A stretch of 31,691 bases of DNA from a virus (taxonomy: Duplodnaviria; Heunggongvirae; Uroviricota; Caudoviricetes), in the IMG/VR virus record IMGVR_UViG_2778261559_000026. One strand, written 5' to 3'. Positions within the stretch are counted from its first letter, which is position 1; each line of letters starts with the position of its first letter. Shown piece by piece: positions 24,901 to 30,900 of the stretch. The position numbers were made by a program.

Positions 24901-27900
24901 TCAGTTTCTCTTCCAGATAATTCCAACGGTCAACCAGTTGGCGAGTAAATTCCGGTACGTTTTGAGCAATCAAGACAATCGAATCTAAGCGACCTTGCTC
25001 ACCCTCAAACACATAATCTTTAACAGTAACAGCAAACCCTAAGTTATTGATTTTCTCGAAATTCTGCGTTGCAGGTTTTCGGATAACTTGGCGTTCAACC
25101 AGTCGGTTCATAGAAGTTTCAAGGTTTGAAAAACGAACTCCAATAAGGTCGGCAATTTCACGAAGAGTCATTTTTGCAACTTCGTTATCAACAACCAGAG
25201 ACACGGAAGCAGTTTTAACAGCAGTATTCATAGTAGTAACAGTATTCATAGTAGTAATTCCCCTTAAACGGTTTTGCGATAATGATATTGATCCTCCTAG
25301 TTCCGGCAGCATCACCGGAACAATTTTATTTATAAGAAGTTTTTATCTCATTTAGATTCAGCAATCGCGCGATCAATTTCTTCTTGAATGCGACGCTGGC
25401 GTTCATGGAAGTCAACCATTGAGAAATTCAGGTTTGGGGTCCACGGTTTGCGGTTCGGGTTTTTGCGTCCATCAATTTTCTTAGTAGTGTTCATAATTAA
25501 CATCCTCTTTACAGTTCTAGGTCAAATATGATCAAGGTTGTCAAGTGCGATGATCATAAAAAAGTAAGAAATTTTTGTCAATACACCTTGACAAGACACC
25601 AAAGGGTTGACCTAACTTACAGAATATCTAAGCCTTCATCGTAACCGTAGAAGCCATTCTGAGAAGAGAAACAGATTGGTGCGTAGTCGTCGTCATCTTC
25701 GTCTTGTTCATCTTCTTCTGGGGCTTCCTGAGCGGTTTCTTTACCGTAGTTAAACATTGCTTCATCCAGTTCATAGACAGTAACGAAGCTACCCAGGTCA
25801 ATGTCACCGGAACGGACTTCAAACGGAAGATCATCACGAACAATAATTGCTGGTAGATTCTGGTACTTTAAGCGTTCTTCATCGGTGAAGACGTTAACAA
25901 CAATGGTCGGCTTCTTATTACGGTGGAAGGCATACCATGCACTAGAGAAATGAGATTCATCAGAGTTGAAAAGAATGTTGTGACCACGTTCACGGAACAT
26001 CTTCATTAACTTGTCATTGTGGAAGCTATCAGCATCAAAACCTAACAGGATGAAAGGAGTAGTGGTAGTCATTTTATGGTTCATAGTGGAAATCCTCTAA
26101 AAGAAAGTGAATCAATCTAATATTATTTATAAAGAGAAAATTCTTGTTATTATGAAAGGTGATTGTATTCAGTCGGGCAAAGCCCTCCTTCATGATTTGA
26201 TTAAATCATCATCAAAACGAAGAAGTATCTTTAGAATATAAGAATCTTTCTTTTGGAGAAATAATAATCAGGAAGCAATTTAGCAACCGAAGGTTGCAAT
26301 CCCGAAGGGATACCAATACCTTTCTAGAAAGTGATTGTTACTCACTTCGTTCGTTTACTAGAATCAGTTAGTAACTAGTATTAAATCCCTTTCTAAGAAA
26401 ATCCTTTCAAAAGTGATTCTCGATGCCACGCAGTGGCGTCGCAGACGTTTGAGAGTGAGCGAAGCGAGCGAGCAAACTAGTTAATTCCTTCTAAGACCAT
26501 CTAGTATCATCTAGTTTAAATTAGTTGTTACTAGAAGTAATTGGTTAGCGCTTCGCGCAGTCGGGCAAAGCCCTCCTAATATCTTTTTGGTTATTTTTGG
26601 TTTTACACATGAGCGTAGCGAATGTGTTATATAATATCTATGCACGCCGAATCCCCCGCCCTTACCCCTACCTAATTTAATGTTTTATAAAGAGTTTTTC
26701 TCACCAATCCTTTTCGGGGGAAAATTTCAGGGGCAAAAATTAGATTTTCAGGGGCAATTATTGGCATTTCAGGGGCAAAAATGAGGGGCAAAATCACTGT
26801 TTCCCAGAAATTTCAGGGGCAAAAATAGTAGGTTTCAGGGGCAAAAATAGGATAGTAGAATCTTGGGATTTTGTTCGGGGGCAATTCCCATCAAATATTT
26901 TGATAGAAAATTATTGTATATTATTTAACCACAAAATCACCAAAAAGTGGTTTAAGCTAATGATTTAAAAGGAATAATCAAAAGGTCTCCGTGCCATAAT
27001 AGGTTATAAAGGTTGATAATCCTAATCTACCATTTTCAAACAAAAATTTTGATAGTCACCTCTCGCTTAGATCATGTGTGTTGACATGTGTCAAGAACTA
27101 TTTTATGCTTTTTATCACTGGTAAGGGTTGAAATTTTCAAAACAATCCCCATATAGATGATAAGCATGATTTTTTCGTGTATAAATACATGCATGAAAAA
27201 TGATTGTTCACTTCTGAAAATCTCCTGACTCACTGTTAACTCATACAGCACTGGTTAGATATGCAGTGCTTTTTTCGGTTGAATATTGTACGGATTGATT
27301 AATTATTAATCTTCTCTTTAGCAATTCGTGCTCCCACTGATCGGATATACAGTGGTTTTGCAGGGTTTTTCGAAAAACATTTTATAAATAGAATTGTTCA
27401 GAGCGAAAAGCTCTTTTTTAAGATTTTTTAAACCTAACAATGAGGGATTAAAAATGGCTAAACCTGTACGATTCACACGAGAAGTATTACTCCCGATTGC
27501 TAAACGTTATTTTGAAGCGATGCAGGGTGACAAGCTGGCGGTTTTGAAGGAAGAAGGGATTGACCCCTCTGATTTTAGAAAACTGCTAAAACGATATGAC
27601 ATTAAAGTGAAGATTGAAGCTACCGTTTGGTAATCAACTTTGACTGAGAATTATATGATGGCTTTAAAAATAAAAAAGCCCCCTTGCGGCAACAAGGAGG
27701 CTTTTGCGATGAACAATTAAAACTAACTTTCCACAGGAGTATTTATAATGTTATTTTCCGCTAACTTTTTCACTAACGAAGTAACCAACGCTAAAGCAGT
27801 TATCAAATTTGGCACCGAAGCAAACAAGAAGATTCAGCCGAAAGTTGTTGCTCATGTTTCCTTTGCGCAGCAGAAATCCGCTTTCGCTGGCTTTAAAGCA

Positions 27901-30900
27901 CATCGTGAAGCACTGATCGCGGCTGGCTTTGGTGTTGACGGTAAACTGCCTAACGGCATTCGTAAAGCAATCGACCGCGTTAAACCTGCTAAAGACGTTG
28001 CAGTAGACCACATCGTTACCTTTACCGTTAAGAACTCTTCTGAACTGTTCCACCTGGTGATTGCTGGTGATACTGCTATCGTTTCCGCTCCTAACATGGA
28101 TTTTCAGGATACCGCTGATTGCCAGATCACCTTCGGTCGTCGTAAAGAAGTTACCGGAAAAGCTAAACTGAACTTCACTAAATCCGGCAATCCTTATTTT
28201 TCTGTATTCTTTAACAGCCACGCTACAGAAAAAGAAGTAGTAGAAGTGGTTGCGTATGAAGGTGAATTGAAAGAACGCATTGAATCTTGTGAAGCATTCC
28301 TGGAACTGGAAGCACAGGTGAATGCTGTTTCTCCGCGCTTTACTTCACTGGAAGAAAAAGACCAGATCATCGAAGCACAGAAAGCTGAGATTGAAAAACT
28401 GAAAGCTGCACTGGAAGAAAAAGACCAGATTATCGAAGCACAGAAAGCTGAGATTGAAGAACTGAAAGCTAAAGAAGTTGCTCCGGTGGCAGTAGTTGAA
28501 AACGCGGCTGATGAGGCCGCAAATGATGAAGTAGAAGTGAAAATTGATGTGATGCGCGATCCGATGGCTGCATTAAACTTGCTTCGGTCCTTCAAGGGAA
28601 AATCCTATTTCTCTAGTGATGTAGAAGACGAGGAAGAACAGAAACGCAATACTGCAATGCTTCATGATGAAATGTACGGTACTAACTTTTCTTACTGCCA
28701 ATAAAAAAGGGACTCCGAAGAGTCCCTAGTAAGTTTAGGTTAGGTTTGCACAACAAAGATGAGGTTATAATGAACATAATGCTACATTATTCTTTAAAGC
28801 CAGAAAAATAACCGCCCCCTTCGGGGCGGGAGGATTAATACTCAATCTATACTTGTTATGTTTTTGTGTTGTATGATCACTGATTATGAAAACACTGTAC
28901 TGGAGTGTGTTTTTATGGCTTTTAATCGGGAATCCTCAAAGAAGATCCCCTGTTAATAACCATAAGGAGAAAAGGCAGATTACACTATTATTTAGTATCC
29001 TTTTTACAGCAACTAAAAAGAATAAACAAAAAGAAGCATACCCAGCCGTAAGGCGTACCGATTAGAAATTTGAAAAACACCACCAGCGATATAAAAATCA
29101 ATTTAATGCCAGCGACGATAGTCAAAAACAGCAGAGTAGCAAAGTAGACCAAAAGATCCATAGATAATCCTCTTTGAAAACGACCATCATCTATAGTTCA
29201 ATTCATCGATTTAATTAATGATACTTGAAAGCGTTACACACAGCAGAAATGCCAATATGTGCCAGTGAATATACGATAGTTAATCCTACAGTAAGATAAA
29301 TCAAAAATTCAACCATAGGTAAATCCTCAAATAAGAAAAAGGTTAGCGGGGGGTGATTCCCCCCGTAGACGTTGACCAGCTCAACATCTTTCATACATTT
29401 ATTTATAACGCGTTTTAAGACACATCAAATTCATCGTCTTCTTCTGGTTCTTGTTCCGGTTCATCCATTAATGGTAATTCTTCTTCCTGGTCTTCTCCCA
29501 AATCTGCATTTTCGAACAAGTCCCCTACTTCATTTAAACGACGCTCGATGATCTCCCTTAGCTTATTCTTCAATGTTTTCTGATCAGTGGCAGATTCGAG
29601 AATTTCTAAAGCGTCGATTGTGGCGATCTGCAAAATAGTCTGTTTCACCTTTCCGCAATATTCCGCTAGTTCCTGTTCTACATACCCGACCGGAATAAGC
29701 AGATTCATTGCCTCCTGGTTCTCTCGTTCGGCTGCATCCGCTAATGCTCTCTCACGGCGTAATTTTTCTACGTCGATTTGTTCCCTGATAGAAGTGTTTT
29801 TTAACGGGTTAATGATGTTCTTTAGGACCCAATCACATCCTTCTTTCGCCGGGACACGTCTTGTATTTGTGTTATAAGGTAGACCCCTTTCTATCCATCG
29901 CTTACCGCCACCATTCAATGAATAGCCGTATAAACGGGAAATTTCTGTAAGGGTTAATTCTTCTTTCATTGGTTATCCTCCATTAAATTTGCGTAATTTT
30001 ATTTATTGGTTTTACGCAAAATCTAAGCGCCTAAATCGCATTCTAACGAAGGGAAAGATCCAGTAATGGTAAGGGTTAGGAAGGGGGGTTAATAGTCGCG
30101 TAGCGACCGCGCCATGAGTGAAGTGATCACGTTTTAAAATCTCACACGCACATCAAATACCGGGGTGCCGAAAACTCCCTTTATTTCATCCGTGGAACAG
30201 TACCTTTTTAATTTGTCAAGCATTAATTTCTTAATTTAATTACTAAATCTCATCCCAATAATTGAAAAAATATCAAAAATCAATAAAGTAAGCATCTAAA
30301 AGTCAGTCCATACCAAAAGAGGTATAAAATGAAAAACATTATCGCTGCTATCGTGCTTTCTGCTACTGCTTTCGGTGCTGATGCTGCGTCCTTTGATTGC
30401 ACTAAGGCTATAACCAAATCAGAGAAGTTTATTTGTGCTAATGAGTCAATCTCCGCACTGGATTCTAAACTTCATGAAGTATATGTTAAGGCTGTTAAGA
30501 TTGATCCGTCTCTTAAACAAGAGCAACGCAACTGGAATAAAACTGTTCGTGATACAATGATCAATATCGGGCAGATTCAGCCACTGGAGGCTGTATACAA
30601 CGCTCAAATCCAAAACTTGATGAATGTATTATCTAAAGAAGAAACCGCGTCAGAGAGCGTTACAGATGATTCTGCAAAGGTTGAAGAAGAACAACCGAAA
30701 CAGGAAGAAGTAAAGAAACTGAATGTTACCGCGATTTACGCATGTACTGCAAAATTTACATGGAATGTTATCGATGGTGAGGAAACAGAAGCTGTAAAAG
30801 ATTACTTATACGGAAACAAAGATCATGATGATAAAGGCGGTAAACTTAAAATCAAACTGGTAGATGATGTTCCTGTGTCTTTTGTTTACACCGACAAATA

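Follow-up and report, generated by a model that had tools for sequence, protein, structure and literature searches.

Several described systems offer points of comparison for a protein gene that is associated with an array of short direct repeats. For lambda O and ori-lambda, as well as the Rep-ori pairs of Staphylococcus aureus pathogenicity islands (SaPI) and phage-inducible chromosomal islands (PICI), alternative N-terminal initiator domains covary with iteron sets within one phage backbone. The O protein combines a DNA-binding N-terminal domain with a partner-binding C-terminus, and its gene is part of the early rightward operon located behind terminators. The p6 protein of phi29 is a very abundant DNA-binding protein with an acidic C-terminal region, which forms a multimeric nucleoprotein complex of regular period at origins and affects early transcription. 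The Mu repressor c carries an N-terminal DNA-binding domain, a central leucine-zipper oligomerisation region and a C-terminal tail, and it binds many repeated sites. Herein we describe a gene for a 318-amino acid (aa) orphan protein in the virus record IMGVR_UViG_2778261559_000026 (Caudoviricetes), whose entire 31,691-nucleotide (nt) stretch is called the window. The gene is found downstream of an iteron array in a prophage, and its product may be an iteron-binding protein that acts at the phage replication origin.

Repeat families and slot proteins vary together

There are sister prophages that share the att site, the TerS gene and an acidic gene of 149-155 aa with the prophage in the window, and their backbones are 85-90% identical. 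At the position of the iterons, these sisters carry three other repeat families, and the slot occupied by the orphan gene is filled by genes for sequence-unrelated proteins. Type 1 (the window, L001, L004 and L006-L020) has TTTCAGGGGCAAAA repeats with the core GGGGCAAWW, mostly 21-22 bp apart, and the orphan protein in its slot, to which the Salmonella-type locus L004 adds a 77-aa B gene. Type 2 (L027 and L028) has CGGGGA-type units, many of them 11 bp apart, along with an A protein and a B protein of 333 aa each. Type 3 (L031) has the repeats TTGTACATC and CTAATACCGGGGRA with proteins A' (371 aa) and B' (363 aa), and type 4 (L040-L043) has GTGTAGGT with proteins A (333 aa) and B (80 aa).

A cross-tabulation of repeat family against slot-protein type is concordant for 25/25 loci. 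Every locus that carries the orphan gene has a GGGGCAAWW cluster, with 6-9 copies in Escherichia loci and, by direct reading, 7 in L004 (4 within the fixed counting window of the cross-tabulation). The equivalent place in L004 has 7 copies of the core AGGGGCAAAAAT, with a slot protein that is just 48% identical. A DNA-binding protein and its cognate sites would be expected to show this pattern.

Between the two variable segments lie ~860 bp of backbone, with 85-90% identity from type to type. Within this interval, gp59 has seven allele groups that reassort independently of both iteron and slot type, such that allele group 3 is found with types 1 and 4 whereas type 1 is found with four gp59 alleles. 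Because the intervening backbone recombines, simple linkage is a weak explanation of the pairing. The left junction of the exchanged segments corresponds to the boundary between the iterons and an AT-rich block, and the right junction corresponds to the start codon of the slot gene; types 1 and 4 share even the ribosome-binding site (RBS). We rejected gp59 as the reader of the iterons because its alleles reassort independently. Likewise, the possibility that the iterons are pac or cos sites for TerS was dismissed, since TerS is conserved across types and does not covary with the repeats.

The N-terminal domains of the A-type proteins are not detectably homologous between types; A of type 2 and A' of type 3 are distant homologs of each other. 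A remote relationship between the orphan protein and the slot proteins of types 2 and 3 was considered and rejected, as hhalign supports an alignment of the coiled coil only, with 10% probability. Nevertheless, all A-type slot proteins have a codon adaptation index (CAI) of 0.48-0.69, a basic N-terminal domain, a coiled coil and an acidic remainder. In addition, the motif LHDxxYxTN(F/Y)S at the C-terminus of the orphan protein is common to the otherwise unrelated slot protein of type 4 (7/11 positions identical, E = 0.001 for that single comparison).

Some further features of the cassettes were observed. The B genes (L027, 7311-8312; L031, 8364-9455; L041, 5377-5619; L004, 10930-11163) encode dissimilar proteins of 77-363 aa that all end in PTLR(I/L)VA or LTLRIVA, and the last two residues are AA in four of the six A-type proteins. 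We infer that these A and B termini may resemble ssrA/LVA-type ClpXP degrons. The window carries no B gene, and the TLRxVA motif is absent from it in every frame. In their upstream region, some type-1 elements (L008 and L012-L017) have 1-3 stray GTGTAGG (type-4) motifs beside the GGGGCAA array, which may be scars of past cassette exchange.

Codon adaptation of the orphan gene

The original prediction, made from the sequence of the window, held that this gene has high-expression codon usage like that of its host and could encode an abundant protein. We calculated CAI values with the Sharp-Li table for E. coli and with a second reference based on the tufB and rplKAJL genes of one E. coli genome, and obtained 0.593 and 0.562, respectively. 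Most other open reading frames (ORFs) in the window have values of 0.18-0.45, and 34 ordinary host genes give 0.21-0.41 while nusG, rplJ and rpoB give 0.51-0.64. Translational selection and AT bias both favour the codons GAA and AAA, and therefore the value was compared with 3000 synonymous resamplings drawn from the prophage's own codon usage. None of the 3000 resamples was as high (z = +7.8). The index thus lies within the range of ribosomal-protein and RNA polymerase genes and above the expectation from composition, as for the highly expressed class of genes, and the codon-usage part of the original prediction is borne out.

Only two other genes in the window have comparable z values, which are those for the tail tube (11365-11835, z = 7.9) and the protease-capsid fusion (17115-19121, z = 10.2). 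The adaptation is uneven along the gene, with z = 7.0 for residues 2-160, z = 5.6 for residues 161-245 and z = 0.3 for the last 73 codons. The 48%-identical homolog in L004 has a CAI of 0.69, which is the highest of its locus, and high codon adaptation is therefore a conserved and selected trait of the family. An abundant product is predicted on this basis, since the gene is as strongly adapted as those for the capsid and tail tube, and the distant homolog retains the adaptation.

The term 'host-like' is misleading. Translational codon adaptation stands out but composition does not, as the gene has 43.3% GC, the window 41.6%, and the other prophage ORFs fractions of 0.37-0.46. Noncoding DNA makes up the AT-rich surroundings (35-36% GC) that had been contrasted with the gene.

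Architecture of the orphan protein

The ORF is a real gene, with an ATG start codon and the sequence AGGAG located 9 nt upstream. The proposed arrangement of a basic N-terminal half, a coiled coil and an acidic tail proved correct. Residues 1-160 have an isoelectric point (pI) of 9.75 and a net charge of +8, a long helix spans residues 201-242 of the AlphaFold2 (AF2) model, and the remainder of the protein beyond residue 160 has a net charge of -21. An earlier suggestion that the protein is a DNA mimic is not supported, because it is not uniformly acidic and has no match in PADLOC or Pfam. The AF2 model depicts the N-terminal domain as a mixed alpha/beta fold with a beta-meander, at modest confidence (predicted local distance difference test, pLDDT, of 65-85 over most of residues 1-156), and the tail as disordered (pLDDT <50).

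The protein belongs to no known family. Searches of curated libraries (Pfam, NCBIfam, PHROG and PADLOC) and of folds yielded no significant match. The linker and coiled coil give only sub-threshold, noise-level matches in Pfam and NCBIfam, mostly to coiled-coil families. PADLOC likewise returned nothing beyond coiled-coil noise, and no PHROG structural family matches above noise; the sole head-related match is at noise level and covers the coiled coil. Profile scans revealed no Rep_3 or winged-helix signal, and there is no match to Phage_rep_O in Pfam or PHROG.

The 63-bp tandem duplication described in the original prediction was confirmed by Tandem Repeats Finder (TRF), and its two copies differ at 3/63 positions. 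Each unit encodes 21 aa that form three heptads, (S/A)LEEKDQIIEAQKAEIE(K/E)LKA. Alleles of the gene carry 1, 2, 3 or 4 copies of this in-frame unit (298, 319, 340 and 361 aa, respectively), so the earlier proposal of a repeat-number-variable protein holds. A second and commoner allele class of 313 aa has an 11-aa unit, of which one allele carries a duplicate. As a length polymorphism of the coiled coil, the 63-bp duplication is ordinary and keeps the heptad register, and nothing points to rapid switching of the phase-variation type or to a switch role for the repeat.

Distribution of the gene family

There are ~395 homologs of the orphan protein, nearly all of which are close copies from Escherichia or Shigella, and every one is named 'hypothetical'. 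A further profile search yielded E. coli copies that are nearly identical. The gene is present in 37/5426 complete E. coli genomes, and the prophage lineage is found in about 1% of such genomes. With HMMER, 1.8 billion cluster representatives were searched exhaustively, which gave 13 matches, among which only two are real distant relatives. These are the Salmonella-type homolog of L004, which occupies the same genomic position, and a protein from locus L005, whose host has ~31% GC (34% identity). Both retain the MLFSAN(F/I)F start, a basic N-terminal domain and the coiled coil, and both have C-terminal modules unlike that of the orphan protein.

The giant repetitive proteins P0130 and P0133, which match residues 75-171, were rejected as homologs because their scores are sums of weak repeat matches. 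The partial gene matches H59-H62 were similarly rejected as natural chimeras of the N-terminal domain, as they are truncations by IS3 and IS5 in prophage remnants. Three such remnants (L037, L038 and L039, from E. coli L73, EC05 and 14EC029) have insertion sequence (IS) elements of the IS3 or IS5 family (IS3, ISKpn26) that are inserted in the gene or delete its 5' part. Phage and plasmid collections contain no match at the DNA or protein level, no further lineage emerged from GTDB genomes or from metagenomes, and a full-text literature search returned nothing on this element.

A possible role at a replication origin

The explanation that we tentatively favour, and that may well prove wrong, is that the orphan protein is made in abundance, binds the iterons in a sequence-specific manner and serves as organiser or initiator of replication at the phage origin. 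Perhaps the basic N-terminal domain recognises the ~8 TTTCAGGGGCAAAA iterons located about 860 bp upstream, while the coiled coil would hold the subunits of an oligomer together and could change in length by steps of three heptads with its register kept. The acidic tail and the short C-terminal motif might contact a partner or modulate DNA binding. The resulting nucleoprotein complex would then define and fire a replication origin that comprises the iterons and the adjoining AT-rich block.

An origin is suggested because direct repeats one or two helical turns apart abut a conserved AT-rich block close to a strong promoter, and because no replication gene is recognised elsewhere in the element. 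This gap was noted among the window ORFs scanned and also in the annotation of the element in strain PD23. Three perfect DnaA boxes in L004 point in the same direction. These are located at 9690-9860, between gp60 and the homolog of the orphan gene, within a repeated 12-mer (AGTTATCCACAA twice and ACTTATCCACAA once), and they are absent from the E. coli versions. Capsid-level codon adaptation in turn suggests stoichiometric rather than catalytic use of the protein, which brings it nearer to phi29 p6 than to classical Rep proteins. DNA binding, origin function and the timing of expression are all features that we infer.

Several observations weigh against this proposal. No DNA-binding or initiator domain is detectable in the protein with profile libraries, and fold searches with the N-terminal domain gave generic beta-barrels as the sole matches, none of them significant. 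There is no good DnaA box in the window, but just TTAACCACA at 26925, which occurs at chance frequency. Adaptation at the level of a capsid gene would be unusual for a classical initiator, the iterons are ~860 bp from the gene with gp59 between them, and the covariation is drawn from four types and about five independent lineages of one backbone. Moreover, a role in replication is argued partly from the lack of alternatives, and several small neighbouring genes are likewise unassigned.

The covariation in 25/25 loci also fits with a type-specific transcriptional regulator or immunity factor, wherein the protein would bind the array and silence or activate divergent early operons in a heteroimmunity-like manner. 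Its domain layout would then correspond to that of the Mu repressor c. The array does sit between divergently transcribed gene sets, several specificity types in one backbone are typical of immunity regions, and the resemblance of several slot-protein ends (...AA) to ClpXP degrons would suit such a factor. However, the array is ~190 bp upstream of the sole strong predicted promoter and ~600 bp from the leftward gene start, and it overlaps neither. Promoter control also looks type-independent, because all types have an identical operator-like palindrome over the -35 element. Three terminator-like hairpins before the gene pair argue against steady lysogenic expression, and capsid-level codon adaptation is rare in repressors, such that we consider a regulator of this kind unlikely.

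If the protein does not bind iterons at all, it could be some other abundant product such as a virion-associated, scaffold, decoration, fibre-like or otherwise stoichiometric factor, and the covariation would then reflect joint inheritance of a larger variable module. Its CAI matches those of the major capsid and tail-tube genes, coiled-coil length that changes in three-heptad steps is reminiscent of fibrous proteins, and the gene is placed between TerS and TerL. We regard this explanation as quite unlikely, since the gene follows terminator-like hairpins on the strand opposite to that of every structural gene, and it shares an operon with a small helix-turn-helix (HTH)-like protein. It is also outside the head module, unlike a scaffold or decoration gene, and a separate scaffold is probably unnecessary for a capsid made as a protease fusion. 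The absence of a PHROG structural match above noise is similarly unhelpful to this idea, and the pairing is perfect although the backbone between the iterons and the gene recombines. Cargo of the moron type (defence, anti-defence or superinfection exclusion) that benefits the lysogen or counters host defences would account for the unrelated orphan proteins in the slot of sister prophages, the location near a prophage end with terminators on the flanks, and the high predicted expression. Even so, this seems highly improbable, as PADLOC detected only coiled-coil noise, the Salmonella-type relative has a homolog at the same position, and the iteron covariation is left unexplained. Furthermore, there is no sign of selection at the level of the host, because decayed prophages have copies of the gene that are truncated by IS elements. 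The related suggestions of lysogenic conversion and host takeover in the original prediction thus find no support.

With an origin-organising iteron-binding protein as the favoured explanation, a broader idea can be considered, which we regard as doubtful. This lineage without a canonical replication gene may carry interchangeable 'origin cassettes', each composed of an iteron family and a partner protein. The partner proteins, at least four and unrelated in sequence, would combine a common architecture (basic beta-rich N-terminal domain, coiled coil and acidic tail) with near-capsid abundance. They would constitute a new class of stoichiometric origin-organising initiators, with a logic closer to that of phi29 p6 than to that of Rep or O, and a single backbone would have seen several reinventions of origin specificity. 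A functional pairing would provide a testable handle on the replication of a widespread, unstudied prophage lineage of E. coli and Salmonella, and the four natural cassette types lend themselves to specificity swaps. It would also add one or more new folds to the small set of origin- or iteron-recognition domains. More generally, stoichiometric DNA-organising proteins might be flagged by very high codon adaptation when the phage gene is non-structural.

Organisation of the upstream region

The orphan gene is the second gene of a conserved unit that consists of a promoter, a leader of ~310 nt, gp59, a hairpin and then the orphan gene (Table 1). The AT-rich block is conserved in E. coli backbones of types 1, 2 and 4 and has no alignment in L004. 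All types retain the promoter, and so does L004, with the sequence TTGACA-17-TATAAT. Its -35 element sits inside the palindrome TTGAC-N4-GTCAA (27081-27094), which is identical across types and unrelated to the iterons. No Rfam family matches the leader or the rest of the noncoding region. The leader could be controlled by antitermination, or it could be a noncoding RNA of ~300 nt as in P4-type immunity. Because terminator-like hairpins precede gp59, expression would be conditional and probably lytic. Early expression of the orphan gene is plausible given its location downstream of a near-consensus promoter and several terminator-like hairpins. The gp59 protein is 55-59% identical in L004 and L005.

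Other sequences in this region include an exact 20-nt direct repeat, CAGTCGGGCAAAGCCCTCCT, present at 26170-26189 and 26558-26577 (388 bp apart). The left part of the noncoding region also has several GC-rich hairpins.

Table 1. Features of the orphan gene and the region upstream of it, with positions in the window
Feature	Position	Strand	Description
Iteron array	26712-26886	+	~8 direct repeats, TTTCAGGGGCAAAA(A/T)T, with a spacing of mostly 21-22 bp
AT-rich block adjoining the iterons	26890-27075	+	Two TCAAA-N3-TTTGA-like palindromes; candidate DNA-unwinding region
Near-consensus sigma-70 promoter	27081-27109	+	TTGACA-17-TATGCT; best of 9 promoter-like sites
Conserved leader of ~310 nt	27116-27425	+	Three hairpin-plus-U-run elements at ~27248-27275, 27334-27362 and 27400-27420; fold z = -2.2
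gp59	27454-27633	+	Conserved 59-aa HTH-like protein; precedes the orphan gene in the two-gene unit
Conserved GC-rich hairpin separating gp59 from the slot gene	27674-27705		Stem-preserving changes; types 1, 2 and 4 and L004
Orphan gene	27748-28704	+	318 aa; orphan A-type slot protein; ORF call
Basic N-terminal domain (residues 1-160)	27748-28227	+	Proposed iteron-recognition domain
Helical linker and coiled coil (~residues 166-245)	28243-28482	+	Contains the long AF2 helix
63-bp x2 tandem repeat	28346-28470	+	TRF: period 63, 2.0 copies, 96% matches
Acidic C-terminal tail	28483-28701	+	Net -9; no codon adaptation; ends in motif LHDEMYGTNFSYCQ
Hairpin directly 3' of the orphan gene stop codon	28708-28727		A-run and T-run on flanks; terminator-like on both strands

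Prophage context and neighbouring genes

The window represents a siphovirus-type prophage whose structural genes are on the minus strand. They encode a GpA-type TerL, a portal, an S78 protease-capsid fusion, a tail tube, a tape measure and a J-like tip protein. The orphan gene is on the plus strand between the Nu1-like TerS gene and TerL, near one prophage end. A large serine recombinase has integrated the prophage into hicB. The hicB antitoxin gene is split accordingly (window 1-3949 and 31341-31691; also L001 and L003), and the recombinase gene is located at 2537-3949. Compared with the intact relative in strain PD23 (~33 kb), the copy in the window is without a lysis cassette and has a shorter recombinase (470 versus 559 aa) and tail-tip protein (599 versus 1217 aa). 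This copy is probably a defective prophage that has undergone deletions. TerL is at most 43% identical to that of any sequenced phage, which places the lineage at a distance from sequenced phages.

Some neighbouring genes are worth mentioning. A gene at 25617-26084 on the minus strand, which diverges from the same noncoding region, encodes a very acidic 155-aa protein (net charge of -19, with a DEDDDDY... tail). Its gene is conserved among all cassette types and has a raised CAI (z = 4.0; a value of 0.58 in L004). This protein is a better candidate than the orphan protein for a DNA mimic or for a factor resembling the tail of single-stranded DNA-binding protein. A 299-aa Rha/Ant-like protein (24416-25315) has a weak Crp-like HTH match (Pfam E = 0.006) and is a candidate for a type-independent repressor that acts at the palindrome at 27081-27094. 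The gene for a basic protein of 200 aa (23250-23852, plus strand) has the lowest codon adaptation in the window (z = -4.7), and its product holds two motifs, ...YSRLRQYGIKAEF... and ...FRRVRDWFDFDIKRF..., that resemble the HTH-like segment of gp59.

Further away, a 1142-aa tail-fibre-like gene (11924-15352, minus strand) is located between the head genes and the tail-tube gene. ARAGORN reports a 91-nt tRNA-Glu(ttc) at 16414-16504 on the plus strand, which is inside the minus-strand ORF 16269-16772. Rfam has no tRNA there at the gathering threshold, and this call is probably a false positive. At the prophage ends are genes for an LprI-family protein and for a 137-aa protein with an N-terminus like a signal peptide (30329-31108 and 2075-2488, both on the plus strand), and these could be morons.

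Comparison with known systems

Rep_3-type iteron-binding initiators of plasmids and phage-plasmids such as P1 RepA, F RepE, pSC101 RepA and R6K pi resemble this locus in having direct repeats one or two helical turns apart by an AT-rich stretch. They also form a specificity pair between the repeats and a protein of ~300 aa, which is matched here by the covariation (25/25), and DnaA boxes are nearby in one relative of the orphan gene (L004). In contrast, Rep_3 proteins match tandem winged-helix profiles for which the orphan protein gives no signal. The iterons here are separated from the gene by a promoter, a leader and another gene. Rep_3-type genes have iteron-like inverted repeats at their own promoter for autoregulation, whereas no half-iteron operators are present here. 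Finally, the orphan protein has a long coiled coil, an acidic tail and codon adaptation far above what is expected for Rep.

The similarities to lambda O and to the SaPI and PICI systems are the covariation of iterons and protein, the modular nature of the protein and the location of the gene behind terminators. However, the lambda origin is inside the O gene, whereas there are no iteron copies inside the orphan gene and its product lacks a match to Phage_rep_O. No P-like or helicase gene is found here, the Rep proteins of SaPIs are helicases, and the four N-terminal domains of the slot proteins are not detectably homologous.

With phi29 p6, the orphan protein shares predicted abundance and an acidic C-terminal region. 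The p6 protein differs in its size of ~100 aa, its limited sequence specificity, its lack of a coiled coil and its function in protein-primed linear replication, and no similarity in sequence or fold was detected between the two. The domain layout of the Mu repressor c would also parallel that proposed for the orphan protein, with no homology detected. The Mu sites overlap early promoters, whereas the array here overlaps no predicted promoter.

Judged by the features of each group, the orphan protein falls outside the Rep_3 proteins, lambda O, DNA mimics and head proteins, and it belongs only with repeat-number-variable and highly codon-adapted proteins. Thus, it is outside every known family, yet its covariation with the repeats suggests that it acts like an iteron-specificity protein.

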